Source: an uncultured Acidobacteriota bacterium
Lineage (GTDB): Bacteria; Acidobacteriota; Vicinamibacteria; Vicinamibacterales; 2-12-FULL-66-21
NCBI GenBank assembly: GCA_963725145.1
Contig: CAVRXL010000010.1
Location: forward strand, 410,693-474,692
Direction of reading: 5' to 3'
Length of the DNA: 64,000 bases
In this document: piece by piece, positions 5,601 through 22,161 of the stretch
Layout: every line of letters starts with the position of its first letter
Numbering within the stretch: the first letter of the stretch is position 1
The notes under the pieces: generated by a model
Told to the model about the DNA's origin: nothing
The model's input: only the letters and a program-made list of their open reading frames with translations
Databases searched by the model: none
Translations under genes and position numbers: made by a program

Positions 5601-6009
5601 CCACTTGCAGCGCGACATCCTCAATCACTGCTTTCTTGAAGCCGGGATGATCAAGTTCAATCCTGTAATTGCCGAACGGCAATGCCCGGAATTCGAACAA
5701 TCCGCTCTGGTTCGACTGTTGCTCCCAACTCTGATGTCGAGCGTCGTCGATCAACTTCACATGCACGTCCGGCACGACGGCGCCAGTAGGGTCTGCAACC
5801 GTCCCGCGAATCACACCGGTGGCGGTCTGCGCGAGGACGACAGACGTCATGCGCAGGTACAAGACAATCGCGAGAATCAGGTGGCGTCGCAGCTGCGCGC
5901 GAGTGTCCGTCCCCCGAACAAGGCGCAGTGCTCCGGAAGCATAGGTCGACGGCCATCGCGCGTACGCCGCGACTCGGCTGATGATGTTGTTGCGGAACAG
6001 CCCGGCCAC
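2664..6009 (-). CDS. TonB-dependent outer-membrane receptor with an N-terminal carboxypeptidase-regulatory-like domain. The reading frame is broken once (~3424-3432).
   Basis: ORFs 3196..6009 and 2664..3449 are two pieces of one protein. In order: signal-like LILAIVLYLRMTSVVLAQ; TATGVIRGTVADPTGAVVPDVHVKL..GNYRIELDHPGFKK (CarboxypepD_reg-like); plug-like LELPINGRNVMQLVSLSAGV; a long barrel; terminal ..ERVIQLGLKYSF with an aromatic C-terminus. The pieces join as ..PGFALIRPYP / QLGSVNIYESRAAAKYTAVQ after a 1-nt shift. The start is uncertain: 6009 is a GTG about 50 codons before the signal peptide. Confidence 0.85.
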
Positions 6010-6468
6010 CGCGCCAAGGCCGGTCGTTCAGCCGGACGACGGACAGCACCACGAATGTTCCCGCACAGCGCATTGTGGGTTCGCCCCTACAGCTTGATTA
6101 CCCAAGTGCGTGGGGCACCGCGAACCGCTGGCTCGACGAACAGGATAATACGCGAAGTGAATCGCGCGCGTGCCGCCAACTCCAACATTCTTCTGCGTCA
6201 AGAGTCAGCAGACGACGCCGGGAGTCTGGATTAACGTTGTGTGGGATTGACTCTGGCCGACCCCTGCGACTTCCGCCCCCGCACGCCCAGGGGCAGCGCC
6301 AGCCCGACGCGATGGCGCGACATGGCGTTCACGCGATCGAGGTTCGCGAGCATGAGGGCAGCCGCATCGGCGTAGGGCACGATCATCTCAATGCTGAACC
6401 TCATCGTCCTCGTTTGAGCGTGGAGGCGGGACAGTCCCCGCTGCTCCCGCAGGATCCAATTCATTCGC

Positions 6469-6672
6469 TTAGCGGGCTTGGGCGTCGTCCGGCTGCAGCC
6501 GAATCGCTGCACGGTATTCGGGGAGCGCGGCGGGCCGCGGTTCGGCGCCGGCGCGCTTCATCTCGAAGTGCCACTTCCAGATTTCGTAGATCGCCGGGTA
6601 GACGACGAGCTCGAGGACGAACGATGTGAAGATGCCGCCTACCATCGGCGCGTGGAGAAACGGTTCTGACAT
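6469..6672 (-). pseudogene. Relic of the 3' end of a CusA/CzcA-type RND gene. It retains the last TM helix plus the tail, with a fortuitous ATG.
   Basis: ORF 6469..6750 contains ..APMVGGIFTSFVLELVVYPAIYEIWKWHFEMKRAGAEP. This nearly matches the C-terminus of the intact cusA (..APMVGGILTSFVLELVVYPAIYEIWKWHFEMKRARAEA). At nucleotide level, 6541-6652 aligns by eye with 8424-8534 with only a handful of mismatches. Upstream of the shared block the sequence is unrelated (MSEPFLH). Confidence 0.8.
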
Positions 6673-6703
6673 CTGCTTCCTTCGCAGCGCTTCAATGCTT
6701 TTC

Positions 6704-7315
6704 CTACTCCGGCAATCCCGGAGACTGGTGATCGTGCAATTCCTGCCCAACGATGCAAAGCAGGATCGCGACCTGCGCGTAGCTGGCGATCAACACGCTG
6801 TAGTGAAGTAACTCTTCTTCGCCAAAAAGCGCCAGGGCTGTCGCGTACGTCGCTGGCGTAACCTGCTTCGCCCCCACCGCCTCGCGCGCGAGATGAATGA
6901 GCGCAGCCTCTCTTTCTGGTACATCTGAAAGCGGCCTGCCGTGGCGGATCATGTCGATGGTCGCAGCGGGAACACCCATCTCCAGCGCCACCGGTTCATG
7001 CATGGCCCACTCGAACTGGCTTTGCATCTCCCGCGCGGTGGCGAGAATGGTTAACTCAACCAGGCGCGCATCAAGCCCCAGCTCGGAACGCAGCATGCGG
7101 TTGACGTCGCCCAGGGACTTGGCGAGCTTGGGCATGCGCAGGATCACTCCGCCAGGCCCCTTGATGCCCGCGAGATTCAAGCGTCCCGAACGTGGCGCCG
7201 TCACCGCGTCGTAGGCCTTTTGCTGTGCCTCGTTCAAGGTCTCGCGTTTCAGCGGCGGCAAGCGCGAGAGGGTTTCGGGATACACATCGGCGGGAAGTTG
7301 TGTTGCGGTTGCCAT
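6704..7315 (-). CDS. Carboxymuconolactone decarboxylase (CMD/AhpD-like) family protein
   Basis: Within ORF 6704..7402. The ATG at 7315 (MATATQLPADVYPE) is preceded by AAGGAG with 5-nt spacing. The block ..RLVELTILATAREMQSQFEWAMHEPVALEMGVPAATIDMI.. is typical of CMD-family proteins of about 200 aa. Confidence 0.8.
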   Translation of the reverse strand: MATATQLPADVYPETLSRLPPLKRETLNEAQQKAYDAVTAPRSGRLNLAGIKGPGGVILRMPKLAKSLGDVNRMLRSELGLDARLVELTILATAREMQSQFEWAMHEPVALEMGVPAATIDMIRHGRPLSDVPEREAALIHLAREAVGAKQVTPATYATALALFGEEELLHYSVLIASYAQVAILLCIVGQELHDHQSPGLPE

Positions 7316-7411
7316 GCCATCTCCTTCGTGATGACGTTGGTACCGGTCGAGCCCGCAGCTCACCGCGGTGCTCGGGCACCCGTTCGGGTCGAGCATCGTC
7401 ATGCCGCCGCG

Positions 7412-8275
7412 TCATGCCTGGGCAGGCTTCAGCACAAAGTCGTAGTGCATACGATAAAACGGCGCTTCGACCTGGTATTTCGCCGCTTCTTCACGCGTCT
7501 TCACGCGCTCACAGTCGACCACCAACGATTCTTTCACCCCAAACACCGCATCCGAATCGAGGTATTGGTCGCCTGTGACGAACAACTGCGTCACCAGACG
7601 CTCGTGCCCTGGGGCGCTGATCATGAAATGCAAATGCGCGGCGCGCATGTTATGCCGCTTGGTGGCCTCCAGCATGGCGCCCACTGGCCCGTCGGTTGGT
7701 ATCCCATAGTTCACCGGCCGCACCGCCCGGAACCAAAACTGGCCTGAGGCATCCGTCCGCAGCCGTGCCCGCAGGCTGAGACCGTTGGGTTTTTGCAAAT
7801 CGTAGAACCCGTCACCGTCGGCTTCCCAGAAATCCACCACTGCGCCCGCCAGCGGGGTGCCGTCGAGGCTTGCGACACTGCCGGCGATCACGCAAGGCTC
7901 GCCATCGCTTGGGTGCTTGGCAAGATTACTCCCCAGCGGGAGTTCCGGTGCGCCCTCGACGAAGGCTGGCCCGAGCAGGTCCGACTCGGTGGCATTGCCA
8001 ACCTTGCCATGATTGAGAAGGTCGACCAGCATCGACACCCCAAGCGAGTCTGAGAGCAGAATGAACTCCTGCCGCTTGTCATCACACTTCTGGCCAACCG
8101 CCGTGAGGAACTGGATACCGGCCAGCCATTCCTCCGAGGTTGGCCGTACCTCGCGCACAAAGCCGTGCAGATGCGTGACCAGACTGGTCATGATCTGCCG
8201 CAGACGCGGGTCGGGCGTTGCGGCAACGCGGTTGATCACCGCTTCCATCAGGGTCTGTTCGTTATAGTCACTCAT
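7412..8275 (-). CDS. Intradiol ring-cleavage dioxygenase (catechol / hydroxyquinol 1,2-dioxygenase family)
   Basis: Within ORF 7412..8293. The ATG at 8275 (MSDYNEQTLMEAV) follows AAGGTGGA. It has an N-terminal dioxygenase helical domain (RLRQIMTSLVTHLHGFVREVRPTSEEWLAGIQFL). The catalytic core reads ..VDFWEADGDGFYD..YGIPTDGPVG..RAAHLHFMI.., where R.AH.HF is the conserved His-ligand block. Confidence 0.9.
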   Translation of the reverse strand: MSDYNEQTLMEAVINRVAATPDPRLRQIMTSLVTHLHGFVREVRPTSEEWLAGIQFLTAVGQKCDDKRQEFILLSDSLGVSMLVDLLNHGKVGNATESDLLGPAFVEGAPELPLGSNLAKHPSDGEPCVIAGSVASLDGTPLAGAVVDFWEADGDGFYDLQKPNGLSLRARLRTDASGQFWFRAVRPVNYGIPTDGPVGAMLEATKRHNMRAAHLHFMISAPGHERLVTQLFVTGDQYLDSDAVFGVKESLVVDCERVKTREEAAKYQVEAPFYRMHYDFVLKPAQA

Positions 8276-8372
8276 GTCTTCCACCTTATGCACGGTGTGG
8301 CCTGCGCCATAACTTGCGGATGGCGAATGAAACGGTCCCGGCGCCAGCTCGATCCATGGATGTCGATCGCTG

Positions 8373-11300
8373 TCATTGCGCCGCCTCGGGCGACGGCAGG
8401 GCGGCGAGCAGGGCGGGCTGCGCTTCGGCGCGGGCGCGCTTCATCTCGAAGTGCCACTTCCAGATTTCGTAGATGGCCGGGTAGACGACGAGCTCGAGGA
8501 CGAACGACGTGAGGATGCCGCCAACCATCGGCGCGGCGATCCGCTTCCACACGTCGGACCCGGTGCCGGTGGCCCACATGATCGGGAGGAGCCCGAGGAA
8601 CGTCGTCGCCATCGTCATGAACTTCGGGCGCAGCCGCTTCGCGGCGCCTTCCACGATCGTCGCCTGGAGATCGGCGAGCGTTCGCAGGCGTCCTTCGCGC
8701 GACGCCTTCGCGTACGCGAGGTCGAGATACAGCAGCATGAAGACGCCGGTCTGGGCGTCGACGCCGAGCAGCGCGATCAGCCCGACCCATACGGCGATGC
8801 TCATGTTGTAGCCGAGCAGGTACAGGAACCAGACGGCGCCGACGGCCGAGAACGGCACGGCCAGCAACACGATCGCCGTCTTCACGAGCGACCGCGTGTT
8901 CAGGTACAGAAGCACGACCACGAGCAACAGCGTGAACGGGATGATGTACGCGAGACGCGCACGCACGCGCGCCATCGCTTCGTACTGGCCGCTCCAGAGC
9001 ACCGCGTAACCGGGCGGCAGCTTCACCTGCTCGCGCACGACGCGGCTCGCCTCGTCCACGTAGCTGCTGATGTCGCGGCCTGCGACGTCCACGAAGACGT
9101 ATCCGGTGAGCAGCCCGTCCTCGTTGCGGATCATCGCGGGTCCTGTCGCGACCTTCACGCGCGCCAGCTCGCCGAGCGGGATCTGCCGCTGCCCATCCGA
9201 CGCCGGCACGAGCACGCGCGCGATCGCGTCGGTGTCGGACCGGAAATCGCGCATGTAGCGGACGTTCACCGGATACCGCTCGCGCCCCTCGATCGTGGTG
9301 GTCACGTTCTCGCCGCCGATCGCGTTCTGCACCACGCCCTGCGCCGCCTCGACGCTCAAGCCGTAGCGCGCGAGCGCGTCACGGTTCCATTCGATGTCGA
9401 GGAAGAACCCGCTGCCGGTGCGCTCCGCGAACACGTTGCGCGTCCCGCTCACGGAGGGAAGCGCCGCCTCGATCGCCGTGCCGATCTTCTCGATCTCGGC
9501 AAAGTCCGCCCCGGAGATCTTCAGCCCGACCGGCGTGCGGATGCCGGTCGTCAGCATGTCGATCCGCCCCTTGATCGGCATCGTCCAGGCGTTCGAGACG
9601 CCGGGATACGTCAGGGCCGCGTTCATCTCCTCGACCAGCTGTTCTTCCGAGATGTGATCGGGCGTGACGTGCCGGAGCACGCGCTTGATCCACTCCGGCG
9701 CCCACCCGGAGTACCACGTCTCGACCCGGCGCCACTCGGACGTGGGCTTGAGCGTGATCACCGTCTCGAGCATCGAGAGCGGCGCGGGATCGGTGCTCGT
9801 GTCCGCGCGCCCCGCCTTGCCGAGCACACGATCGACCTCGGGGAACTGCTTGATGGCACGGTCACTCACCTGCACCAGCTTCTGCGCCTCGCCGATCGCA
9901 ATGCCCGGCATCGTCGTCGGCATGTAAAGAAGCGATCCCTCGTAGAGCGGCGGCATGAACTCCGATCCCAGGCGCGTGAACACCGGCACCGTGACGACGA
10001 CGAGGGCTGCGGCGCCGCCGATGACCGCCCATTTCCACCGCAACGACCAGCGGACGACCGGCTCGTACATCTTCATGAGGAAGCGGCTGATGGGATGCGA
10101 CTCCTCGGAGCGGATGCGGCCGACGAGCACCGCGTTGGTCACCCGGCAGAGCCAGGCCGGCCGGAACTCGAAGCGCCGCACGCGCGTGAAGAGAACACGC
10201 AGCGCGGGGTCGAGCGTGATCACGAGGCCCGCCGCCACGAGCATCGTGAGCGTCTTGGTGTAGGCGAGCGGCTTGAACAGCCGCCCTTCCTGCGACTCGA
10301 GCGCCAGCACCGGGAGAAACGACACCGCGATCACGAGCAGCGCAAAGAAGCTCGCCGGCGCCACCTCCTTGACCGCCTCGAGGACAACCTTGTGATAGTC
10401 GCGCGTCGATCCGTCGCGCTGCGCCTGCTCGAGCTTCTTGTGGGTCTGCTCCACGACGACGATCGCCGCGTCCACCAGCTCGCCCATCGCGATCGCGATG
10501 CCGCCGAGCGACATGATGTTCGCCGTGATCCCCATCGCGCGGAACGGGATGAACGCCACGAGCACGGCAACCGGAATGGTGATGAGCGGGATCAGCGCGC
10601 TCGGCACGTGCCACAGGAACAGCAGCACGATGAAGACGACGGCGAGCACCACCTCGACGAGCGTCTCGCTCACGTTGTCGATCGCGCGGCGGATCAGCAC
10701 CGAGCGGTCGTAGATGGGGACGATCTCCATCCCGGACGGCAAGCCCGGCTCGATCTGGCGGATGCGCTCCTTGACGCGATCGATCACGTCGACCGCGTTC
10801 TCCCCCTGGCGCATCACGACGATCCCCGACACCACTTCGCCGGCGCCGTCCAGATCCGCCACGCCCCGCCGCAGATCCGGGCCGAGCGTTACGTGCCCGA
10901 TGTCGCGGACCCGGATCGGCGTGCCGCTCTCGCTGGCCGTCACGACGATGCTCTCGAAGTCGGCGACCGACTTGGCGTACCCGCGGCCGCGCACCATGTA
11001 CTCGGTGCCGCCGAACTCGATGAGCCGACCGGCAGTCTCGGCGTTGCCGCCGCGCACAGCCTCGACGACCCGCTGTATCGAGAGGCCGTAGTTGCGCAGC
11101 CGGTTCGGGTCGACGTTCACCTGGTACTGCCGGCCGAAGCCACCGACCGAGGCCACCTCGGACACGCCGGGCACCGCCTTCAGGTAGTAGCGCAGGTACC
11201 AGTCCTGGTACGACCGCACATCCGCCAGGCTGTGTCTGCCCGAGCGGTCCACGAGCGCGTACTGGAACACCCAGCCGAGACCGGTCGCGTCGGGCCCGAG

Positions 11301-11681
11301 CTCCGTGCGCGCATCGGGCGGCAGCCGCGACAGCACGCCGGAGAGGTACTCCAGTGTCCGCGTGCGCGCCCAGTAGGTGTCGGTTCCATCCTCGAAGATC
11401 ACGTAGACGAACGAGTAGCCAAAATCGGAGACGCCGCGGACCGCTTTCACGCGCGGCGCGCCGAGCATCGCCGTCACGATCGGATACGTGACCTGCGCCT
11501 CGATGAGGTCGGGACTGCGATCCCACCGCGAGTAGACGATGACCTGTGTGTCGCCGAGGTCAGGGATCGCGTCCAGCGGCACGTTCCGCAGCGCGCGCGC
11601 GCCGGCGAGCGCGGCGGCGCCCACCAGCAACAGGACCAGGAACTTGTTCCTGACCGAGAAGTCGATGATGCGCTCGATCAT
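8373..11681 (-). CDS. cusA: CusA/CzcA-family heavy-metal (Cu/Ag-type) RND efflux pump
   Basis: Intact 1102-aa ORF. It begins MIERIIDFSVRNKFLVLLLVGAAALAGARALRNVPLDAIPDLGDTQVIVYSRWDRSPDLIEAQVTYPIV and shows 12-TM RND architecture throughout. Its ATG overlaps the cusB stop (ATGA). Confidence 0.95.
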   Translation of the reverse strand: MIERIIDFSVRNKFLVLLLVGAAALAGARALRNVPLDAIPDLGDTQVIVYSRWDRSPDLIEAQVTYPIVTAMLGAPRVKAVRGVSDFGYSFVYVIFEDGTDTYWARTRTLEYLSGVLSRLPPDARTELGPDATGLGWVFQYALVDRSGRHSLADVRSYQDWYLRYYLKAVPGVSEVASVGGFGRQYQVNVDPNRLRNYGLSIQRVVEAVRGGNAETAGRLIEFGGTEYMVRGRGYAKSVADFESIVVTASESGTPIRVRDIGHVTLGPDLRRGVADLDGAGEVVSGIVVMRQGENAVDVIDRVKERIRQIEPGLPSGMEIVPIYDRSVLIRRAIDNVSETLVEVVLAVVFIVLLFLWHVPSALIPLITIPVAVLVAFIPFRAMGITANIMSLGGIAIAMGELVDAAIVVVEQTHKKLEQAQRDGSTRDYHKVVLEAVKEVAPASFFALLVIAVSFLPVLALESQEGRLFKPLAYTKTLTMLVAAGLVITLDPALRVLFTRVRRFEFRPAWLCRVTNAVLVGRIRSEESHPISRFLMKMYEPVVRWSLRWKWAVIGGAAALVVVTVPVFTRLGSEFMPPLYEGSLLYMPTTMPGIAIGEAQKLVQVSDRAIKQFPEVDRVLGKAGRADTSTDPAPLSMLETVITLKPTSEWRRVETWYSGWAPEWIKRVLRHVTPDHISEEQLVEEMNAALTYPGVSNAWTMPIKGRIDMLTTGIRTPVGLKISGADFAEIEKIGTAIEAALPSVSGTRNVFAERTGSGFFLDIEWNRDALARYGLSVEAAQGVVQNAIGGENVTTTIEGRERYPVNVRYMRDFRSDTDAIARVLVPASDGQRQIPLGELARVKVATGPAMIRNEDGLLTGYVFVDVAGRDISSYVDEASRVVREQVKLPPGYAVLWSGQYEAMARVRARLAYIIPFTLLLVVVLLYLNTRSLVKTAIVLLAVPFSAVGAVWFLYLLGYNMSIAVWVGLIALLGVDAQTGVFMLLYLDLAYAKASREGRLRTLADLQATIVEGAAKRLRPKFMTMATTFLGLLPIMWATGTGSDVWKRIAAPMVGGILTSFVLELVVYPAIYEIWKWHFEMKRARAEAQPALLAALPSPEAAQ

Positions 11682-13129
11682 GGCCTCGCGACCTTCCGGT
11701 TCGCGTGGCGCGACGGGTCGGCCGCAAACTGCTGCTTACAGGTGTCCGAGCAAAAGAAGAACACGTGTCCGCCATGCGCCGCCGTGCGGCCGGCGTTGCC
11801 GGCTTCCCTGGGATCCACGTGCATCCCGCACACCGGATCGAGCACCGGCGCCGCCGGCGCCCGCCGCGTTGGGGCTTTCATGCGGCTCTCCGAATCGATG
11901 AAGAACGTGCCCGAGATCACGATCCGCTCGCCCGGCACGAGCCCGTTCGTCACCTCGACGTCGTCGCCGAAGCGCGACCCCGTCTCGATCAGCCGCGGCT
12001 CGAAGTAGCCGTGGCCGCTGTCGACGAACACCGTTTTGCGCAGCCCCGAGTCCACGATCGCATCCGCCGGCACGACGAGCGCCGGTGGGACGTCGACCGG
12101 AAACTCCACGTCAACGAACATGCCGGGCTTGAGCGCCAGACTCGGGTTCGCCGCCTCGAGCCGCACCTGCAGCGTCTGCGTCGCCTCGTCGAAAATCGGC
12201 TCCGAGGTGCTCACCGCCGCCGGCAGCGCGCGGCGCGCTTCGGCCGTGGTGATCCGCGCCGAGGCGCCGCGGCGGATGAACGGCAGCTGGTGGCGGTACA
12301 CGTCAGCCAGGATCCACACGCGGTTCAGATCCGCGATCCGGTAGAACTCGAAGCCGCGATCGAACCGGAGGCCGGGCGAGACGCTGCGCTTCAGCACGAC
12401 GCCGTCCACCGGCGACTCCACGCGGATATCAGGCACGACCTCCCGGCGAGTGGCCATCTCTTGCAGCTGCGAATTGGAGACGCCCATGGTCCGCAGCTCA
12501 TCGGCCATCCGGTCGATCGCGTCGGCGCCGCGCACCGAGGCGTGCGACCGCGACTGGGGCTGTTGGGGCTGCGTGACCGCCATCCGATAGAACGCCTCGA
12601 CGCCGGTGTAGTACGACTGCTGCGCACTCCTGAACTCGACTTCGGGCGCAAGGAACGACGCGAGCACCTGGTCCTTCTTCACAGCCTCGCCCGTTGCTAC
12701 GCTTTCCACCTTCCGGATCCAGCCGCTCACGGCTGCGACGATCGGATACGTGCGGTTCTCGTCCGGCGCCACGCGCCCGGTCGTCCGCAGCAGCCGGGTG
12801 CCCGCGAACCGGGTGACGACACCGAGCCGGACGCCGATCGCCTGCTGCCGCTCCGGACTCACCTGCACCGCGCCGTGCGGGAGGGCGCGCGCCTCGGCGT
12901 CGCCGCCCGTTACCCTGGTTGCACGATCCGCCTCGAGCGACATGCCGCAGATCGGGCAGGTGCCGGAATTGCCGCTGCGGTAGTCCGGGTGCATCGGGCA
13001 GGTGTAGACGGTGGCGGCGTGCGCGCTCGCGTGCGCAGCGCCGGCGCGGTGCGCCCACCACGTGCCGCCGGCGAACGAGCCCGCGCCGAGCGAAACAGCG
13101 ACAGCCGTGACGGCAATGATACGTTTCAT
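11678..13129 (-). CDS. cusB: CusB-type RND periplasmic adaptor with an N-terminal heavy-metal-binding motif and a C-terminal YHS/TRASH-like domain
   Basis: 483-aa ORF with GGAGG before the ATG. It has a signal/anchor (MKRIIAVTAVAVSLGAGSFAG) followed by VYTCPMHPDYRSGNSGTCPICGMSL. The central part is HlyD/CusB-like, with barrel-sandwich and beta-barrel regions. The C-terminus reads VLDPVCGMHVDPREAG..HGGHVFFFCSDTCKQQFAADP (YHS-like). Confidence 0.9.
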   Translation of the reverse strand: MKRIIAVTAVAVSLGAGSFAGGTWWAHRAGAAHASAHAATVYTCPMHPDYRSGNSGTCPICGMSLEADRATRVTGGDAEARALPHGAVQVSPERQQAIGVRLGVVTRFAGTRLLRTTGRVAPDENRTYPIVAAVSGWIRKVESVATGEAVKKDQVLASFLAPEVEFRSAQQSYYTGVEAFYRMAVTQPQQPQSRSHASVRGADAIDRMADELRTMGVSNSQLQEMATRREVVPDIRVESPVDGVVLKRSVSPGLRFDRGFEFYRIADLNRVWILADVYRHQLPFIRRGASARITTAEARRALPAAVSTSEPIFDEATQTLQVRLEAANPSLALKPGMFVDVEFPVDVPPALVVPADAIVDSGLRKTVFVDSGHGYFEPRLIETGSRFGDDVEVTNGLVPGERIVISGTFFIDSESRMKAPTRRAPAAPVLDPVCGMHVDPREAGNAGRTAAHGGHVFFFCSDTCKQQFAADPSRHANRKVARP

Positions 13130-13195: not shown

Positions 13196-13513
13196 TCATG
13201 CGACCGTTGACCGGTACGACTGCACCATCACGAGGAGCAGCGTAAGCGCCGGCAGAGCAACATGCGACAGGCCTTCGCGGTGCCTGATCAGGGTTGCGAG
13301 TGCGCCGACCAGCACGAGGGCGAGGCTTGCCGCACCAACGAGTTCGAGTCCTGGCCACCAGAAGAGGGCGAGCGCGGCAAGTTCGGCAATGCCGGTGGCA
13401 TACATGAACTGCCGCGAATAGCCCCAGCGATCCCAGTTCGGCGCCACCTTGCCGGTGAGTTTCTGCACTGCGGCGCCAACGAAGATCACGCTGATCAGCA
13501 GCTGCAGGATCAC
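13196..13513 (-). CDS. DoxX-family small integral membrane protein
   Basis: 105-aa ORF with hydrophobic segments. The sequence ..[44 protein letters not shown].. matches the DoxX pattern. Its GTG start overlaps the stop of the upstream tyrosinase gene (GTGA). Confidence 0.75.
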
Positions 13514-15759
13514 TGCTGCTTTCCTCCCGAAGGCAGCGACCCATGCGCGCCACCGCGCGAACCGCCAAGGGCACGCTCGTGGAGAGTCTTGTAGGTGCGA
13601 TCTCTCTCGGCGGCCTCCTCTGTGGACAGGCGTTGTGGCTTGGGCGGCTTTTCATAGGCGTCATACTCGTAGCCCATCTGCGCGGTACGATCACTCGCGC
13701 TGACCGGTAGATCCGCGCGCTTGTTGCTTCTGTCCCCATACGAGAAAATGCGATTGAGATACTTGGGATCGGTAGGATTCTTGTTCCCGAGCTGATTCCA
13801 GCTTTCCCAAATACGATCGATGTTGGCGTGATGGATATAGAACATCGGGTCGCCACCGACGGTGGAGAATTCGGCCATGTCGCCGCCGAGTGCGAAATGC
13901 GTAAAGAAGTGCGGGTTCTGGTCCATCCTCGGATTGAACCCAATGTTCCCCGTCGGCGAGTTGATGTAGGTCTTCTCGTTGAGGGCGTCCAGATTGATCC
14001 ATTCCTTGTAGAGGATGTCGATCCGCTCGCCCCCGTTGACCCAGGGCCAGCGCGTGCCGTTGTACAGCGTGGTGCCCGGGACCCGGAACATGGCCGGGAC
14101 GATGAAATCGTCGGGGTTGCCGGTGACCGGGTTCCAGTAAGGAAGTGAAAAATCCTCGTCCTGCAGCACTTCGCGAATGACGCCTTCGAACTGGGCGAGC
14201 ATCAGCCGATGCCACGGCAGGAAGTACCACTGCTGAAACTGCTCGGGGTTCGACGGGTTGAACGGGTGCGCCTGGCACCCGTTCCATACGGCCTCCGCAT
14301 CGGCTCGCGCCTCCGGCGGCAGCGATGCAATCAATTCGGTCTTGAGCTTCCGGGAGTGATCCCACAGGAACGCCGGAAATCCCTTGATCCAGTGGGTATT
14401 CCACCACCACTGCCACGAACGCTGATCGTGTTGCGGCAACTCCCGCATGATCTCGATCGCCTGCGCGTACTTCGCGAGCATCACCTGGCCCTGCGGGCTG
14501 TTGACGTTGTAGCGCGTGTAGAGTCTCTTCGGACCCTGGGAAGGCGCTGCCGCCGCGGTCGTTGCAGCCGTCGTAGGCTGTTGGGAAAGGGCCGGGGTTG
14601 CGCTCGCAGCCGTAGCCGGAGCCTGCGAAGGCGCCGCGGCCGCGCTCTTGCCAGCAGCTGTTGGCGGCGGCGCACCGAACTGCAGCTCCAGAATGTCGTG
14701 CATCGCCGTGTGCGTTGAGAGTGTCGGGTCGAGGAACACCAGCGCCCCCGCCGACTGCATCATCCCGCTCACCAGGTGAAAGCGATTGCCGATCACCCCG
14801 CCCGCGATGCCGTGACGCGGCATCGGCATGGAGGGCAGCGTCATCCACGAATTCGTCACCGGGTCGTACGCCTCGACGCTTTTAAACGCCCCGACCAGAT
14901 CCTTGGTCGTCACCTCGCCGCCGGCGACGTAGATCCGGCGCCCGTCCGTCCCAGAGGCGCCTCCGCTTCGCGCGGTCGGCATCCGCTCCTTCGGAACACT
15001 CCACGTGTTCGAGATCGGGTTGTACTCCTCTACGACGTCCGTGTTGGTGGCCGACAGGATGAAGCCGTGACCGGTGCGCCCGCCAATGACGTAGATCTTG
15101 CCGTTGACGACGCCGCTGAACGCGTGATTACGCGGCACCGACATTGGCGCGCGGCTCTCCCATTTGTTCGTCGCGGGGTCGTACACTTCGTTCGTGCCGA
15201 GGACGCGAGACGGTCCGAAGAAGCTGAAGAACGGGTCCTTCGATCCTTCCATCGTCGTGGCGCCGCCGATCACGTAGATCTTGCCGCCGACTTCCGCGGC
15301 GATCGCCGATCCGCGCTTGCCGGGCAACGGCGGCAGCGACTTCCAGGAATCGGCCGCCGGGTCGTATTCCCACGCGTTGTCAATCGGTTCCCAGGCGCCG
15401 CCAACGGGGATGGCGGTGTCCTTCGGGGGGACGAAGCCGCCGATCACATAGATCTTGCCGTTCGCAGCGGCGAGGGCCGCATGGTGGGCCGGCCGCGGCA
15501 TCGACGTCTTCTTCGTCCATTTGTCGGTGACCGGGTCGTATTGGTAAGCAACGCCCCGAGCCTTGCCTCCGTCCCAGCCGCCAAACACGTAGAGTTTGCC
15601 GTTCAACGGAACGCCGTAGAGCTCCTCATCGGGCTCCGGAAATGGTGCGCCCTTCTTCCAGGGCGATGTTGGCATCTGCGCCAGTGCGGTCGTGACGACC
15701 ACCAGGCAGGTGATCAACACGGCCAGCATGGCAGTTCCTCGTTTCAACACGTTCGACAT
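13510..15759 (-). CDS. Exported fusion protein: six-bladed Kelch beta-propeller, Ala/Pro/Thr/Ser linker, and a type-3 copper tyrosinase / polyphenol-oxidase domain
   Basis: 749-aa ORF with Sec signal [28 protein letters not shown]. Six Kelch-like blades are marked by [45 protein letters not shown] and [10 protein letters not shown] low-complexity linker occupies aa ~361-410. Tyrosinase blocks are [21 protein letters not shown] and [15 protein letters not shown] (the CuB signature D-P-x-F-x-x2-H-x3-D). Confidence 0.9.
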
Positions 15760-15799
15760 AAGTGGTCTCCTTTCACGGTCGTTGACGATGTATCAGGTC

Positions 15800-16555
15800 C
15801 TATCGCGTATTGACGATCAGGCCAAACAAGAGGTAGTCGACGGTTCTACTGCCGTCACTGGTCTCCCACATGTAGGATGGCTGGAAGAACACGCGCTTGT
15901 TGAGTGGCAACGTGACGCCAGTCCAAACGCGCACTCTGTTCCATCCACCATCCTGCTCATAGTAGGTTTCGTATGCGGCAAAGGGCTTCCAGACGTGCCC
16001 TCGAACCGTGAGGGGATGCGCGATCGCAATTTTTCCGCGGTAACGGTTCGTATCGTTCGCTGGCACTGGACGGAACCGTCTGACATACATGTTGCGGCCG
16101 GAGATCTCGAACTTGCGAACGGAGAACGCCACGGTTCCGTCAATTCGAAACTGGTGCTCGTCGTAGCTGTCGGTGAATCGTCCCGGCTGCGGCGGCAGCT
16201 TATTGAGCCCGCTTGCAGGAACCGAGTAATACATGTAGCTGGGAGTCACCGTCAGAAACTTTGCCGTCCGAATTGGAACGTCAACTTGTGCGACTGGTGT
16301 GTCTAATCTGCCGATGTAAAACCCATACAGTTTCAGATCGATCTGTTTCTGCACCGGGGTACTCAGCACCATCCAGGCCGAAGGCGCGAAGAGTGCGCCA
16401 CGTCCATCGCCTGGATCGGGTACAGCAGGTACAGTAGGTGGGTCTACGTTTTCTTGGGCAGCACACGGTGCGCCGAGCGACATCAAACAGACCACCAGAG
16501 CACTTGGCACGAGATACCGCGCAGACCTTGTGAACCCTCGCATAACCATCTCCAC
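15800..16555 (-). CDS. Putative outer-membrane beta-barrel protein (DUF2490-like); function unknown
   Basis: 251-aa ORF with a signal peptide (..LVVCLMSLGAPCAAQ). It has alternating-hydrophobicity strands rich in Y/F/W/R (KLYGFYIGRL, FLTVTPSYMYYSV, FEISGRNMYVRRF, FFQPSYMWETS). It ends 40 bp upstream of the tyrosinase start. The family call is from memory only. Confidence 0.6.
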   Translation of the reverse strand: MEMVMRGFTRSARYLVPSALVVCLMSLGAPCAAQENVDPPTVPAVPDPGDGRGALFAPSAWMVLSTPVQKQIDLKLYGFYIGRLDTPVAQVDVPIRTAKFLTVTPSYMYYSVPASGLNKLPPQPGRFTDSYDEHQFRIDGTVAFSVRKFEISGRNMYVRRFRPVPANDTNRYRGKIAIAHPLTVRGHVWKPFAAYETYYEQDGGWNRVRVWTGVTLPLNKRVFFQPSYMWETSDGSRTVDYLLFGLIVNTR

Positions 16556-16913
16556 GGACCTCGTCCATCGACGCGACAGTCACCGTTCGGCGAAACCTCG
16601 TTGCGAGGTCCCTTCCGCTACGCGTCGTGAGATGGCAACGGCGATGCCGGCGCACAATGCCTCGTGAACACGCCAGAATTGGCGTTTTTGCCTGCGCACA
16701 CCGCGCAAATGAGTGTGTGGTTTCGCGCGATGTGTGCGATCACACGCAGCCGCCGTTCAGGCACGCTTGGCGTTGATGCGCCCGGCCACGAGAAGGCAAT
16801 TACGTCGATCTCGCCGCGTTTCTCACGGATTGCCTTACGAGCGAGTAGAGAGGCTGTGAGTGCCGAGCGGGAGGCATCACCTTTGCCGTGCACTTCGACC
16901 GGAGAGGTCAAAG

Positions 16914-17813
16914 ATGGCAAGGCAAAAGGTCATAACGGGTCTGGTTGTCGTTCTCGCATTCGCGTGCGCGGCGAACGCAGGCTTTGCGCAAACGCAGGCG
17001 ACAACAACCAACGCAACACAGACATCAGGCGGTGACGGTCAGTCTGCCGCCGCACAGGCCCAGGAGGCGAGTAATCCCTTCGCCAAGAGTTGGCTGATGC
17101 AGTTGCAGCAGAACAACAATTGGACGGAGATGCCCCGCGGCGACGATCACACTCGGGTGCAGAGTAATCTGGTGTTCCAGCCGTTGATGAGTCTCAGGCT
17201 GACCGAGAAGCAGGGGCTGGTTGTCCGCCCCATGGTGACCATCGTTAATTCCATCCCCCATTTCGATCAGAGCGGCCAGAATGAACGGACCGCCGGGTTC
17301 GGCGACACCGTTCTCGCATTTGCGCTGCCGCGTCCGTTCTTCGGCGGCCGGCTCACGGTCGGCGCAGGCCCGACGTTCATCTTCCCTACGGCATCGAAGG
17401 ATCTGCTCAGCCAGGACACATGGCAGGTGGGGCCTGATGCGGGAGCCGTGTTGCTCGGCAAGAACTTCATCGCCTACGGCTTCGTGCAGCAATGGTTCAA
17501 AATCGGGGGAGACGGCGAGGACACGAACCACATGAACGGAACGTTCAACTTCACGTACATGCTCGCAAACGGGTTCACGATAGGCACCCAGCCGAACCTC
17601 TCGGTCGATTGGGAGGCGCCCGAAGACAACCGAGTGGCATTTTCGATCGGACCACAGATAGGAAAGCTCTGCAGATGCGGGGGCCTGCCGACGTTGTTCC
17701 AGTTGCAGGTTCAGTACTACCCGGTTCGCCCAGATGTCGCCGGTCCGAAGTGGAATATTCAGCTGCAAGCGACGCCGACGATCCCGGCCCTCATCAAGAA
17801 AGCGCTCTTCTGA
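16914..17813 (+). CDS. Outer-membrane beta-barrel channel, possibly of the 'MetA-pathway of phenol degradation'/transporter family; assignment tentative
   Basis: The ATG at 16914 lies inside ORF 16860..17813 and follows GGAGAG. The signal peptide is MARQKVITGLVVVLAFACAANAGFAQ. The body has beta-strand periodicity and a terminal ..ALIKKALF (C-terminal Phe). Confidence 0.65.
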   Translation: MARQKVITGLVVVLAFACAANAGFAQTQATTTNATQTSGGDGQSAAAQAQEASNPFAKSWLMQLQQNNNWTEMPRGDDHTRVQSNLVFQPLMSLRLTEKQGLVVRPMVTIVNSIPHFDQSGQNERTAGFGDTVLAFALPRPFFGGRLTVGAGPTFIFPTASKDLLSQDTWQVGPDAGAVLLGKNFIAYGFVQQWFKIGGDGEDTNHMNGTFNFTYMLANGFTIGTQPNLSVDWEAPEDNRVAFSIGPQIGKLCRCGGLPTLFQLQVQYYPVRPDVAGPKWNIQLQATPTIPALIKKALF

Positions 17814-17890
17814 CTGTGAGCAGAGTTTTCTGCACCGTTCCTGGTTCAGACAGCTCCCGCGCAGGCAGGACAGATCGTAAATGCTGGCGT

Positions 17891-20800
17891 ATGGATCCTC
17901 GCCGACCGCGCCTCCTTCGTATCACCCGGGCCTGCGCCACGGCTGCGGCCAGCCTGAGCTCGTTGCTCATCTGCGTACTCGTGTCGGCGGGGCCCGCCTA
18001 TGGCTTGGATCCGGATAAGCGAGTCACTCAGTACATTCACACGTCCTGGCGAATTCAGGATGGCTCGCTGCCGGCCGGCATGTTCTCGATCACCCAAACC
18101 TCCGACGGCTTTCTCTGGTTGTTATCTCTCCCAGGCGAGGTCTACAGGTTCGACGGTGTTCGGTTCGTACGTTGGCCTGTCCCTCCCGGTCCTTCAGGGA
18201 AGGTCTTTGCCGACAGCGCCGGCGGTCTCTGGGTAACCGCGACAGAGCTCGTTCACCTGAAGAATGGGGTTGTCGCTTCTCATTTCGAGTTGGCAGGCAC
18301 TCACGGGTTTCAAAGCATCAGCGAAGATCCTGAGGGCACTGTGTGGGTCGGGCTACGCGGAGAAGACGCGCCGCTCTGCAGCGCGAGCGACCACGGGGTC
18401 AAGTGTTTCGGAAAGAGCGATGGGCTTCCGCTTAGCGAGATCAATGCGGTGCTGCCCGATGGCAGCGGTGGCTTATGGCTGGGAGGATCGACCGCCCTCG
18501 TTCGCTGGAACCGTGGTGGTGTGTCCGAGACGTACCCGGTCAAAGCCCCCATATCGAGTCTGGCCCGCACGCCCGATGGAACGCTCTGGGTGGGCCTGTC
18601 GGAGGAGGGACCAGGGCTGGGGCTTCAAGAGCTAGGCGACGGTGTTCTGAAGACCTTCGTCACCCCGCACTTCGACGGAAGCAAAGTCAGCGTCACCAGT
18701 CTGATGGTGGATCGTGACGGCAACCTCTGGGCCGGCACCGATGCTAGCGGTGTCGTTCGTATCCATGGAGACGCCGTCGAACGCTACCGTCAGACGGACG
18801 GCCTTTCCGGCGATTCCGTGTGGGCCCTGTTTGAAGACCGTGAAGGCATCGTCTGGGCGGGAACCACGAGCGGCATAGACAGCTTCCGCGATCCGCGTGT
18901 CGTCACCTTCTCGGCTGTACAAGGGTTGGGAAAGGATCTGGCAGCCGGCATTCTGGCCAGCCGAGACGGCACGCTCTGGGTGGCAAATCACGGGTCGCTC
19001 GACCGGATCAGGAACGGGACGGTCACATCCATCGACAGCAGCAATGGTCTTCCGGGGAACCAAGTCGCCGCCATGCTGGAAGACCGCGCCGGCAACATGT
19101 GGGTAGGAGTGGACGACGGACTGTATCTCTTCAAAGATGGGCGATTCCGTCGTCTGCCGGAACCAGACCACCAGCCGCTCGGAATGGTGGTTGGACTGAC
19201 CGAGGATGTCGACGGAAATATCTGGGCAGCATGCGGCAGACCAAGAAAGCTCGTGCGAATACGCGATTTCCAGGTGCGCGACGTGTTCACTGCCGCGCAG
19301 GTTCCGCCTGGATCTCATCACCTTGCTCCGGACCCACACGGAGGGATTTGGATCGCGACATCAACAGGAGACGTCGTGTTGATGCGGAACGGCACGGTCG
19401 AAACGACGATTCCGCTCGATCCCAGAAGTTCTCCGTTGAATCGGCACATCGTCGCTGGCGCAGATGGCTCCGTTCTCGTCGGCTCCGAAAACGGTCTGCT
19501 GGGCTGGCGTGCGGGCAAAGTCCGGCGGATGACCACGAAAAACGGCCTGCCCTGCGACTTCGTCATCGCGTTCATTCAGGACACGGAACAGCAGTGGTGG
19601 CTGTATACCCGCTGCGGTGTCGTGGGCTTCCCGGACGCTGAGCTCCAGAAGTGGTGGGCGAACCCGGATGCCATGATTCGGAACCGCGTCTACGATGCGT
19701 TCGACGGCGCCCAGCCAAACATCGGTTCTTTCAACGCAGCGGCGTCGACTTCCGATGGGCGCGTGTGGTTCTCCAGCGGAGTCGTCGTACAGATGCTGGA
19801 CCCGTCCAGGATCTCGCAACCAGCCAGGCCGGCGGCAGCTTCCGTCGAGTCCGTGATCGTCGACCGAGAGGAATTCGCGGCTGTTGACAACCTCGAGTTT
19901 GGCCCGCACCCGCGCGACTTGCAGATCGACTACACGTCGCCGACCTTCTCGATCCCACAGAAGGTCAAGTTTCGCTACAAGCTCGATGGCTTCGACGCCG
20001 GTTGGCATGAAGCCGGTCTGCGGCGGCAGGCGTTCTACACCGATGTGCCCCCGGGGAAGTACACGTTCCGCGTGATGGCGGCCAACAGCGACGGCGTCTG
20101 GAACGAGCGCGCCGCAACCCTGAAGTTCTCCATCGCTCCGGCGTACTACCAGACGACCTGGTTTCGCGCAGTGTCCGCGGTTGCGTTCGTGGCGCTCCTA
20201 TGGGCGGCGCACCGGTATCGGATGCGCCATGTGCAACAGTCGTTTGCTCTGACGCTCGAGGCACGGGTCGGAGAACGCACGCGAATCGCACGGGAGCTGC
20301 ACGACACGCTGCTGCAAAGTTTCCACGGTGTGTTGCTGCGCTTTCAGACGGCGTCGTACCTGCTGTCGGAACGCCCGGCAGAGGCGAAAGAGAAACTGGA
20401 TGACGCGATCGAACATGCGGCGAACGCAATCACCGAAGGCCGCGACGCGGTGCAGGGCTTGCGGACGTCAACCATCGAACGGAACGATCTGGCCAAGGCG
20501 ATCAGAACGCTCGGCGACGAGCTCGCGGCCAACGCGAGTGACCACCCTCCTTCCGGCTTCCACGTCGTTGTCGAGGGGGAGCCGAGGGATCTGCACCCGA
20601 TCGTGCGTGACGAGATCTACAAGATTGCTGCGGAAGCACTTCGGAATGCCTTCCGGCACGCGCATGCCGGACGGGTCGAGGTCGACATCCGCTACGACGA
20701 CGAGCAATTCCGATTGCGCGTGCGCGACGATGGCAGGGGGATCGATCCGGCGGTGCTCGCCAACCAGGGTGTGGAGGGACACTACGGCCTGCGCGGCATG

Positions 20801-20980
20801 CCGGAACGCGCCGCGCTGATCGGAGGGAAACTGGCGGTGTGGAGCGAAGCGGGCGCAGGGACGGAGGTGGAGCTGCGCCTTCCTGCGGGCATCGTTTACG
20901 CGACATCCCCGAGACGCACCTGGTGGTCACGGCTCCTGGCACCTAAGACGCCGGCTAACGTCCGAGGAGACGCGTCCTGA
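17891..20980 (+). CDS. Sensor histidine kinase: periplasmic two-component-regulator propeller repeats, Y_Y_Y domain, TM segment, HisKA_3 and HATPase_c
   Basis: The ORF-track start at 17492 overlaps the preceding OMP gene, so the in-frame ATG at 17891 is preferred (MDPRRPRLLRITRACATAAASLSSLLICVLVSAGPAYG). Repeated ..DG.LW.G.. blades are present. The Y_Y_Y-like block is KFRYKLDGFDAGWHEAGLRRQAFYTDVPPGKYTFRVMAANSDGVWN. The TM segment is WFRAVSAVAFVALLWAA and the H-box is ARELHDTLLQSFHG. The ATPase blocks read EALRNAFRHAHA..DDGRGID..GLRGMPERAALIGGKL. Confidence 0.9.
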   Translation: MDPRRPRLLRITRACATAAASLSSLLICVLVSAGPAYGLDPDKRVTQYIHTSWRIQDGSLPAGMFSITQTSDGFLWLLSLPGEVYRFDGVRFVRWPVPPGPSGKVFADSAGGLWVTATELVHLKNGVVASHFELAGTHGFQSISEDPEGTVWVGLRGEDAPLCSASDHGVKCFGKSDGLPLSEINAVLPDGSGGLWLGGSTALVRWNRGGVSETYPVKAPISSLARTPDGTLWVGLSEEGPGLGLQELGDGVLKTFVTPHFDGSKVSVTSLMVDRDGNLWAGTDASGVVRIHGDAVERYRQTDGLSGDSVWALFEDREGIVWAGTTSGIDSFRDPRVVTFSAVQGLGKDLAAGILASRDGTLWVANHGSLDRIRNGTVTSIDSSNGLPGNQVAAMLEDRAGNMWVGVDDGLYLFKDGRFRRLPEPDHQPLGMVVGLTEDVDGNIWAACGRPRKLVRIRDFQVRDVFTAAQVPPGSHHLAPDPHGGIWIATSTGDVVLMRNGTVETTIPLDPRSSPLNRHIVAGADGSVLVGSENGLLGWRAGKVRRMTTKNGLPCDFVIAFIQDTEQQWWLYTRCGVVGFPDAELQKWWANPDAMIRNRVYDAFDGAQPNIGSFNAAASTSDGRVWFSSGVVVQMLDPSRISQPARPAAASVESVIVDREEFAAVDNLEFGPHPRDLQIDYTSPTFSIPQKVKFRYKLDGFDAGWHEAGLRRQAFYTDVPPGKYTFRVMAANSDGVWNERAATLKFSIAPAYYQTTWFRAVSAVAFVALLWAAHRYRMRHVQQSFALTLEARVGERTRIARELHDTLLQSFHGVLLRFQTASYLLSERPAEAKEKLDDAIEHAANAITEGRDAVQGLRTSTIERNDLAKAIRTLGDELAANASDHPPSGFHVVVEGEPRDLHPIVRDEIYKIAAEALRNAFRHAHAGRVEVDIRYDDEQFRLRVRDDGRGIDPAVLANQGVEGHYGLRGMPERAALIGGKLAVWSEAGAGTEVELRLPAGIVYATSPRRTWWSRLLAPKTPANVRGDAS

Positions 20981-20987
20981 CCGCAGC

Positions 20988-21090
20988 GTGGACGAGGGGA
21001 GCCGCGTCGTGCGCGAGCAGGTGAAGCTGCCGCCCGGCTACGCGGCGCTCTGGAGCGGCCAGTACGAAGCGATGGCCCGCGTGCGCGCGA
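20988..21090 (+). pseudogene. Internal fragment of a cusA-like gene (about 100 bp), a non-functional relic
   Basis: The plus-strand translation is VDEGSRVVREQVKLPPGYAALWSGQYEAMARVRA. The intact CusA reads VDEASRVVREQVKLPPGYAVLWSGQYEAMARVRA, encoded at about 8963-9066 on the minus strand. The nucleotide sequences are near-identical by eye. Similarity ends abruptly on both sides, and the fragment starts 8 bp after the kinase stop. Confidence 0.8.
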
Positions 21091-21822: not shown

Positions 21823-22161
21823 GGTGGCCGACGCGAGATCACACGCGAACCCGTGCCCCTCACACTCGCCCCCCCTTTGCCCCAGCCTCCGGTTTTTCTC
21901 CACGACGACCGCCTCGTTTGAAAACGCACGTACCGTGTGCCACGACGCACCCGCCCGCGACGGACGATGAGTGCTCATGCACCCGAGCGCGAGAACGAAC
22001 CGGTCGATCTGGGCCGCGTTCCTCGAAAAGTGACTGCGGCACGCGACTGGGCGCTCGGCGCTGTGCGCAGGCATCACCTTTGCCCTTGCGTGCACCGACC
22101 GCAGCGCGGTGATGCGCCATCGGTCACAGACACGCACGGAGAAGGTCGCTTGGAGGACGAT

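Follow-up and report, generated by a model that had tools for sequence, protein, structure and literature searches.

A predicted Sec-exported fusion of a Kelch propeller and a tyrosinase-family domain encoded beside a copper pump in uncultured Acidobacteriota

The Kelch-tyrosinase fusion described here is a 749-residue protein of an uncultured Acidobacteriota bacterium in the class Vicinamibacteria. Its gene lies in a window of 64,000 nucleotides (nt), positions 410,693 to 474,692 of contig CAVRXL010000010.1 in assembly GCA_963725145.1, and all open reading frame (ORF), domain, and operon coordinates below are in the numbering of that window. The translation points to a genuine exported polypeptide of two domains, with an N-terminal Kelch propeller followed by a type-3 copper domain. 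By profile, copper ligands, and fold, the catalytic half is a member of the type-3 copper tyrosinase/polyphenol oxidase (PPO) family. The explanation that best fits the protein, held with a little more confidence than doubt, is that it is an exported phenol oxidase that would receive its copper after export and in which the Kelch propeller would serve as a tethered binding or docking module. The fusion is common in nature, uncharacterised, and largely mis-annotated.

The fusion gene is an uninterrupted ORF with an ATG start and a Shine-Dalgarno sequence (AAGGAG) 7 nt 5' of it. Pfam Kelch_1 matches the product at 173 bits over five stretches (E 5.5e-52), and Pfam Tyrosinase PF00264 matches it at 82.4 bits against a cut-off of 22.6 (E 7.9e-23), which bears out a first-pass annotation that had placed Kelch, linker, and tyrosinase on a single polypeptide. 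The tyrosinase motifs FLPWHR and LPYWNP lie at residues 513 and 539, and a third motif quoted in that annotation lies at residue 637. The first residues read as a leader of Sec type that ends in ALA before QM, in line with the Sec export proposed earlier. Leader residues A25, A27, and Q28 are invariant in a 22-sequence alignment and at least 90% conserved in a 121-sequence alignment. A twin arginine is absent from the leader, which contains K6-R7 only, and the family consensus at this point is a single R. The linker, expected to have about 50 residues at about 14530-14680, is 52 residues long and is composed of 19 Ala, 9 Pro, 7 Thr, and 5 Ser among its residues. An exact-sequence look-up of the 749-residue protein matched no record.

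Base composition changes in steps around 13500-16500. The 3' tyrosinase half has a guanine plus cytosine (GC) content of about 58% and the neighbouring DUF2490 gene one of 56%, compared with 64-68% in the Kelch half and 66-72% in cusBA, which is compatible with a mosaic origin of the fusion. The same fall in GC, from about 65% to about 58% between the two halves, could be expected of a mis-called ORF or of an assembly chimera, the artefact that the first-pass annotation had considered. That reading is already refuted by the independent recurrence of the fusion and is virtually certain to be wrong: more than 120 independent full-length clusters from four assembly sources carry the same fusion, about 20 genomes share it together with its synteny, and the reading frame is unbroken behind a strong ribosome-binding site. 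The best 120 protein-database clusters, drawn from JGI, ENA, NCBI, and Logan assemblies, are all full-length, are 73-91% identical to the protein, and contain both Pfam domains.

In a species-representative set, the fusion occurs in about 20 metagenome-assembled genomes, mostly of Vicinamibacteria and other Acidobacteriota, and some of its loci lie on contigs of up to 4.7 Mb. Outside Acidobacteriota, a single Gemmatimonadales contig carries two paralogues, and among Planctomycetota, Tepidisphaeraceae and Fimbriiglobus have one copy each. The family is tight, with at least 65% identity across phyla, which suggests lateral spread, and clustering at 50% reduces it to essentially one representative. 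Two bins, L014 and L002, labelled 'uncultured cyanobacterium' and 'Bryobacteraceae', carry the same operon with 86-91% protein identity to the Vicinamibacteria copies. These taxonomic labels look doubtful because the operon is so close to those copies.

The tyrosinase of the fusion is always fused among family members, and no Kelch-less version of it was seen there. Candidate 'tyrosinase-only' members are truncated gene calls that start inside the last Kelch blade or carry frameshifts. When homologues were sought with only the catalytic domain as query, all that came back were fragments of the same family, which added no diversity but did bring to light peroxiredoxin and DoxX fusions. Most public entries are named 'N-acetylneuraminic acid mutarotase', and others are named 'hypothetical protein' or 'tyrosinase family protein [Vicinamibacterales bacterium]'. 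A mutarotase identity of the NanM/YjhT type is rejected by scores of 76 bits against a cut-off of 416 for PRK14131 and 62 bits against 256 for TIGR03547.

The catalytic domain, modelled from a diverse alignment, has a predicted local distance difference test score (pLDDT) of 91.9 and a predicted template modelling score (pTM) of 0.88. Its top Foldseek match is the Hahella tyrosinase 8b74 (probability 1.0, E 5.7e-16, template modelling score (TM) 0.66), and probabilities of 1.0 are also reached with 2p3x, 7xio, 6els, and 1bt1. The closest solved structures are 8b74, grape and apple PPO, and Ralstonia TYR. The copper ligands are H456, H498, and H517 at CuA and H617, H621, and H644 at CuB, and each of these columns is His in 107-108 of the 108 clade members in the diverse alignment (107 of 108 for H498).

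The second CuA ligand sits in an unusual position. H498 belongs to a C-x-x-H motif (C495-Q-A-H498) whose Cys495 is invariant across the 108 clade members. The spacing between the second and third CuA His is 19 residues in the fusion family and 11-24 in the clade, compared with 9 in HcTyr1, the Hahella enzyme, and in canonical enzymes. Pairwise alignments to plant PPO place Phe508 at the canonical -9 position, and the loss of the second CuA His that this would imply was rejected as an alignment artefact. In the clade profile, CQAH aligns with the TCCLH motif of mollusc haemocyanin, which holds the second CuA His. Because the invariant C-x-x-H lies 19 residues upstream and aligns with this haemocyanin CuA motif, the feature is read as an insertion and not as a lost ligand.

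The fusion does not have the Asn and Glu residues associated with strict tyrosinase (monophenolase) activity. The residue after the first CuB His is F618 in place of Asn, and the acidic residue four positions before that His is D613 in place of Glu. Under the Asn/Glu 'water-keeper' rule, which is debated in the field, this suggests catechol-oxidase-like (diphenolase) behaviour over efficient monophenolase activity, although it is not decisive.

The nearest non-fusion relatives form a sister clade of proteins that are 33-52% identical to the fusion, have 470-520 residues, and carry an N-terminal catalytic domain followed by a lid-sized block. An RR motif is present in the leader of 90 of 107 sister-clade proteins, whereas the fusion has none. 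After the third CuB His, the fusion has 105 residues compared with a median of 230 in the sister proteins, and the alignment shows that the entire C-terminal lid block, which has about 150 residues in the sisters, is missing. What follows the catalytic domain in the fusion is a short tail that is 60% conserved and forms a helix in both models. Compared with these relatives, the fusion has lost the lid and the twin-arginine translocation (Tat) leader that most of them have; what it has gained is a leader of Sec type and, at the N-terminus, a Kelch propeller borne on a flexible linker of variable length. Two sister-clade proteins, P0153 (1752 residues) and P0166 (1019 residues), have long and differing N-terminal regions with Pro-rich linkers and Cys-rich stretches. 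Accessory-domain fusions thus recur in the sister clade.

In its AlphaFold model, the Kelch half is a closed propeller of six four-stranded blades (6x4), with blocks mostly at pLDDT 85-97. Foldseek matches it to the Kelch domains of KLHL proteins, Keap1, and NS1-BP at TM 0.77-0.87. Six blades, each with a G-K-[IL]-Y-V-x-G-G motif, had been described in the first-pass annotation; the six blades stand, but the exact motif occurs in only four of them (residues 54, 101, 159, and 220), and blades 5 and 6 are degenerate (GRRIYVAGG at 273 and GNRFHLVSG at 324). Blade periodicity is also detectable in the DNA as repeat family D2. Residues 362-412 of the linker have pLDDT below 50 and are predicted to be disordered. 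Among 121 homologues, the linker varies from 18 to 68 residues and is 42% identical, compared with 85% for the Kelch propeller and 82% for the catalytic domain.

Standalone proteins of the same Kelch subfamily are encoded in Betaproteobacteria, Rokubacteria, Binatia, Terriglobia, and Verrucomicrobiota, in more than 50 genomes altogether. These proteins are 50-61% identical to the fusion propeller and share its leader and its PSPWKKGAP start. Extra standalone copies adjoin the fusion in loci L004, L008, L013, and L020. Together with the variable linker, the standalone occurrence is what one would expect if the enzyme had recruited an autonomous binding module of the periplasm, and it agrees less well with a lid or caddie. 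A putative substrate- or partner-binding role of the Kelch propeller is the most plausible one.

Tyrosinase genes lie near a standalone Kelch gene at one locus only, L022 of a Verrucomicrobiota genome. At positions 3036-9080 of this locus there are three tandem PF00264 genes (E 1e-30 to 1e-37), two of them with visible Tat leaders. They adjoin a standalone Kelch protein that is 61% identical to the fusion propeller, and this is the only unfused Kelch-tyrosinase neighbourhood found. In Terriglobia, loci L026, L027, L028, and L030 each contain six tandem paralogues of the Kelch subfamily beside an outer-membrane protein resembling TonB-dependent receptors.

A different role for the propeller would be that of an intramolecular lid or caddie, which would replace the C-terminal lid by covering the dicopper site until activation and/or aid copper insertion. 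Lid loss and Kelch gain do coincide in a single evolutionary step, conservation of the propeller matches that of the catalytic domain, and the three tyrosinase genes of L022 stand beside a closely related standalone Kelch protein. This role is nevertheless distinctly unlikely, since the Kelch subfamily stands alone in contexts without tyrosinase, the linker is disordered and variable in length, and the family alignment shows no conserved Cys/Met/His-rich copper motif beyond the usual residues of Kelch blades. The full-length model, with its catalytic half at pLDDT 30-60, is too unreliable to predict an interface of the propeller with the catalytic domain. As the first-pass annotation had stated, no MelC1-type caddie is encoded among the neighbouring genes.

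The resemblance of the propeller to KLHL/Keap1 domains also bears on a second alternative, in which the enzyme would modify tyrosine in a peptide or protein, as PvdP does, and the propeller would recruit the peptide substrate. The nearest structural neighbours of the propeller are peptide-binding domains, and PvdP offers a precedent as a periplasmic tyrosinase with several domains and a peptide substrate (PMC9305348). Structural likeness among Kelch domains, however, says nothing about the type of ligand, and no non-ribosomal peptide synthetase, precursor of a ribosomally synthesised and post-translationally modified peptide, or conserved small ORF lies beside the fusion in the loci examined. 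This alternative has very little chance of being right.

The fusion is part of an operon whose features are listed in Table 1. The order DUF2490, fusion, DoxX, CusB, and CusA recurs in at least 12 related loci, together with the divergent porin-like gene and sensor kinases. DUF2490 lies directly 5' of the fusion in at least 14 related loci, and its product is probably an outer-membrane protein. DoxX_2 lies directly 3' of the fusion in at least nine loci, appears to be translationally coupled to it through the GTGA overlap, and is merged with the tyrosinase in several metagenomic gene calls. The CusA-type pump is 46% identical to Escherichia coli CusA and keeps its Met triad (M573/M623/M672) as M587/M637/M709. 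The CusB-like adaptor passes the NCBIfam RND_mfp cut-off. Neither CusC nor CusF has an identified homologue in the cluster. The divergent porin-like gene, conserved opposite DUF2490 in at least 12 loci, has a weak match to the PF13557 family Phenol_MetA_deg (21.7 bits, cut-off 22).

Table 1. Features of the fusion gene, its product, and its operon in window coordinates
Feature	Position (nt)	Strand	Evidence and remarks
Divergent porin-like protein	16860..17813	+	Likely true start at ATG ~16914 (MARQKVITG...)
Second candidate sigma-54 promoter	16873..16886	+	Faces porin-like gene, ~30 nt upstream of likely ATG
Candidate sigma-54 -24/-12 promoter	16635..16648	-	cGGCAT-CGCCG-TTGC, ~80 nt upstream of DUF2490
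DUF2490 protein, first operon gene	15800..16555	-	PF10677 E 4e-13; 40-nt gap to fusion
Kelch-tyrosinase fusion	13510-15759	-	GTGA stop/start overlap (-4) with DoxX_2
Predicted Sec-type signal peptide	15679..15759	-	aa 1-27; putative cleavage after ALA before QM, read directly from the translation
Six-bladed Kelch beta-propeller	14680..15672	-	aa 30-360; Kelch_1, AlphaFold model, Foldseek
Ala/Pro/Thr/Ser low-complexity linker	14524..14679	-	aa 361-412; composition, low pLDDT
Type-3 copper (tyrosinase/PPO) catalytic domain	13642..14523	-	aa 413-706; PF00264, model, Foldseek
Short C-terminal tail	13513..13641	-	aa 707-749; predicted helix about 713-730
DoxX_2 small membrane protein	13196..13513	-	PF13564 E 5.5e-13; 66-nt gap to CusB-like gene
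CusB-like periplasmic adaptor, HMBD and YHS domains	11678..13129	-	HlyD_D23 3e-48, HMBD 6e-11, YHS 5e-9; 4-nt overlap (-4) with cusA
CusA-type Cu(I)/Ag(I) RND (resistance-nodulation-division) efflux permease	8373..11681	-	TIGR00914 1047.8 bits, cut-off 701

Outside Vicinamibacteria, the fusion is found without the Cus genes, but outer-membrane channels persist beside it, as DUF2490 in L006, OprB in L010, and OprD in L007 and L021. A thioredoxin-fold protein or domain takes the DoxX position in other phyla. At both Planctomycetota loci, an AhpC/TSA thioredoxin-fold domain with a CxxC motif is fused at the C-terminus, and downstream of the fusion in L013 and L021 come first a thioredoxin-like gene and then a gene for an HMBD protein. 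Several metagenomic matches likewise bear peroxiredoxin or DoxX Pfam labels. The three-domain Kelch, tyrosinase, and AhpC/TSA proteins are encoded at L010 3205-5808 and L011 5019-7613 with a gene for an extracytoplasmic function (ECF) sigma factor upstream, and downstream in L010 are an SMP-30/gluconolactonase-like propeller and an OprB porin. DoxX and DoxD proteins serve as small subunits, located in the membrane, of oxidoreductases linked to quinone or hydroquinone (PMC10084136). A parallel to MhqP as a DoxX-like quinone-resistance protein was dropped in favour of BtdS/DoxD, since the paper found names MhqP as an azoreductase.

In the favoured explanation, the fusion would cross the inner membrane through Sec in an unfolded and copper-free state, would fold in the periplasm, and would be loaded there with copper from co-expressed Cu(I)-handling proteins. 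The thiol-redox or DoxX partner might keep Cys495 and the copper reduced for site assembly, or it might handle thiol-reactive o-quinone products. Small phenolics would enter through the co-encoded outer-membrane channels and be oxidised with O2 to o-quinones, with diphenolase activity likelier than efficient monophenolase activity. Because the lid is absent, the enzyme is probably not made as a latent zymogen and would be active as made. Rather than capping the dicopper site, the Kelch propeller would most likely be an autonomous module for binding or docking, by which the enzyme is positioned on a partner or ligand. There is precedent for periplasmic copper loading in PvdP, which assembles its copper spontaneously once the substrate displaces an active-site tyrosine (PMC9305348).

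Several points weigh against this explanation. CusBA normally exports copper, and its adjacency could reflect co-regulation under copper stress and not supply. The Cus genes are not beside the fusion in Planctomycetota and Gemmatimonadales. A periplasmic location, as opposed to an extracellular one, is assumed from the Sec-type leader alone. The second CuA ligand, H498, is assigned by homology and conservation, and the expectation of diphenolase activity draws on the debated rule. The full-length model, built from 121 close homologues, is too poor in its catalytic half to exclude a Kelch-tyrosinase interface. Finally, the other neighbourhoods of standalone Kelch genes (RNase R, shikimate dehydrogenase, TonB, and amidohydrolase) give no functional signal and no clue to a ligand.

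The link to copper can also be read in the opposite direction. The operon would then be a defence module against copper stress, with the tyrosinase as an oxidase arm comparable to the multicopper oxidases CueO and PcoA, which act in copper defence. The enzyme would oxidise periplasmic catechols that otherwise reduce Cu(II) to toxic Cu(I), or would make copper-binding melanin-like polymers, while CusBA expels Cu(I). What speaks for such a module is how tightly and repeatedly the fusion is linked to CusBA, a pump of Cu(I) type that carries HMBD and YHS domains, and the presence of HMBD proteins nearby even without CusBA (L013 and L021). The Planctomycetota and Gemmatimonadales copies, however, are found without Cus genes, the window shows no copper-responsive regulator, the conserved promoter resembles the sigma-54 type, and to our knowledge no tyrosinase has a role in copper defence. 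Copper defence is on the whole unlikely, and it overlaps with the phenol-oxidase explanation, from which it differs mainly in the direction of the copper link.

Taken together, the parts of the phenol-oxidase explanation could describe a self-contained periplasmic phenol-oxidising system, so far unrecognised, of uncultured bacteria abundant in soil, namely Vicinamibacteria and their relatives. A Tat-exported, lid-bearing zymogen would have been re-engineered into a Sec-exported, lid-less enzyme that obtains copper after export with the help of a dedicated Cu(I) pump and a thiol-redox/DoxX partner, and its Kelch propeller would dock to the substrate-delivering channel or to polymeric phenolics. 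This joint reading is tentative, and in its full form it is conceivable yet doubtful.

Two further genes lie 3' of cusA on the same strand, a catechol 1,2-dioxygenase-like (intradiol) gene at 7412-8293 and a CMD-family gene at 6704-7402. They invite a catabolic role, in which the fusion would hydroxylate phenols to catechols that the downstream intradiol dioxygenase would then cleave. The weak match of the porin-like gene to the 'MetA phenol degradation' family and the presence of the dioxygenase and CMD pair near the fusion in L002 and L021 would agree with this role, but the pair is found at only 3 of about 20 fusion loci in all. A 134-nt direct repeat, 93% identical, is formed by the 3' end of cusA at 8402-8535 and a copy at 6519-6652, just beyond the CMD gene. 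Since this repeat brackets the pair (6704-8293), the pair looks like a later insertion or recombination product. The dioxygenase and CMD proteins also look cytoplasmic because they are without signal peptides, whereas tyrosinases release quinones and not catechols, and the dioxygenase scores under the equivalog cut-offs. Aromatic catabolism is thus quite improbable as the function of the fusion.

Expression of the operon may depend on sigma-54. The candidate promoter upstream of DUF2490 is part of a block, CGGCATCGCCGTTGC, that is identical in 8 of the 10 loci having it and fits the sigma-54 -24/-12 consensus, so that the motif match is supported by conservation. The pattern GGCAT-N5-TTGC has four sites in the window compared with 0.45 expected, and two of them face the divergent DUF2490 and porin-like genes. 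The remaining two are at 22070-22083 (+) and 50601-50614 (+). The second and third sites (16873-16886 and 22070-22083) are mutually identical, GGCATCACCTTTGC. A sigma-54 activator gene adjoins the cluster in L008, while no sigma-54 activator or enhancer-binding protein with a GAFTGA motif is encoded in the window. A scan for sigma-70 promoters and terminators gave nothing above shuffled background.

Other features surround the operon in the window. Paralogous sensor kinases at 1-2612 (-) and 17492-20980 (+), with periplasmic Reg_prop/Y_Y_Y propellers and HisKA_3 domains, flank the cluster, and the same layout is seen in related loci. A 103-nt inverted repeat, 95% complementary, pairs a cusA-internal segment at 8958-9060 with 20987-21089, just past the sensor kinase gene, and may be what is left of a rearrangement or of a second copy of cusA. 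The overlapping ORFs 2664-3449 and 3196-6009 (-) match consecutive parts of OMP_b-brl_4 (model positions 2-598 and 589-838), and together they are probably one TonB-dependent-type gene split by a frameshift or sequencing error.

The first-pass annotation had asked whether the architecture would turn out to be both common and already characterised. It is common in soil metagenomes, but no description of a Kelch-tyrosinase fusion was found in the literature searched, and surveys of bacterial tyrosinases in soils and wetlands mention none. Phenol oxidase activity has so far been credited mostly to fungi and to a few cultured bacterial tyrosinases. In soils and wetlands, this activity helps to set the rate of organic-carbon decomposition, a relationship known as the 'enzyme latch' (PMC9454253, PMC10515480). 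Metagenomes from soil contain the fusion family in abundance, and its members come mostly from Vicinamibacteria, a lineage that is common in soil but uncultured. If the joint reading is true, bacteria could contribute substantially to soil 'phenol oxidase' activity through this family.

The family also provides a test case for how a Sec-exported, unfolded tyrosinase may obtain two copper ions, with the Cu(I) pump, HMBD proteins, the CxxC thioredoxin-fold domain, and DoxX as candidate helpers. It is equally a test case for what takes over once control by lid and caddie are both lost. A tyrosinase with a separable binding module and no lid, which is probably active as made, could find use as a biocatalyst.

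Among known systems, the fusion falls outside the lid-bearing latent tyrosinases, the Tat-exported tyrosinases, the MelC2/MelC1 pair, NanM, and galactose oxidase. HcTyr1 of Hahella sp. CCB MM4 (PDB 8B74) is the best structural match to its catalytic domain and represents the sister clade of about 500 residues. Among single-domain sequence matches to the clade profile it also ranks first (E 2.6e-75), although its identity to the fusion is only about 25%. Both proteins have the type-3 copper fold and six His ligands. Experiments have shown HcTyr1 to be active as a tyrosinase; it oxidises phenols derived from lignin, and a C-terminal lid with the placeholder residue Phe397 restrains it (PMC11609597). 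It differs from the fusion in having this lid and no Kelch propeller and in the spacing of 9 between His78 and His87, compared with 19 in the fusion. A lid is present in all members of the sister clade and a Tat leader in most, whereas the fusion has a Sec-type leader.

The strongest sequence matches to the catalytic domain are mollusc haemocyanin units and plant polyphenol oxidases. In haemocyanin, the TCCLH cysteine forms a thioether with the second CuA His. The fusion differs in that its Cys lies at position -3 relative to the His, the stretch from the second to the third CuA His holds an insertion of about 10 residues, and a C-terminal beta-sandwich is missing.

PvdP resembles the fusion as a bacterial periplasmic tyrosinase with an extra non-catalytic domain and with copper acquired in the periplasm (PMC9305348). 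It acts on a specific peptide within a siderophore pathway, in pyoverdine maturation. The extra domain of PvdP is a small beta-barrel and not a Kelch propeller, and PvdP is absent from the homology search results for the fusion, in which no sequence relationship was detected. The earlier generalisation that bacterial tyrosinases are single-domain is too strong in view of the lid-bearing HcTyr1 (PMC11609597) and of PvdP, to which the title of Poppe et al. 2018, as cited in PMC9305348, ascribes a 'noncanonical domain architecture'.

Streptomyces MelC2 is, like the fusion, an exported type-3 copper phenol oxidase that needs help with copper. It is exported by Tat through the caddie MelC1, whereas the fusion has a Sec-type leader and DUF2490 and DoxX_2 as neighbours, and the MelC2 model NF047834 scores 43.3 bits on the fusion against a cut-off of 450. 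The Aspergillus oryzae pro-tyrosinase MelB (3W6Q/3W6W) uses a CXXC motif of its C-terminal domain in copper insertion. With this cysteine-dependent copper loading and a Cys-His thioether, MelB is a precedent comparable to the CxxC thioredoxin-fold domain fused or adjacent here. It is a distant homologue (E about 0.01), and its CXXC sits in the lid domain and not in a thioredoxin fold.

Galactose oxidase and GlxA share with the fusion the combination of Kelch-type blades and copper chemistry in a secreted enzyme, and the first-pass annotation had drawn a link to propellers of this type. That link is not upheld, as the six blades of the fusion propeller are of KLHL type and the score of the fusion with the GlxA model NF052501 is 19.2 bits against a cut-off of 800. 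In galactose oxidase and GlxA, the mononuclear copper with its Tyr-Cys cofactor is housed in the seven-bladed propeller itself, whereas in the fusion the six blades stand apart from the dinuclear copper domain.

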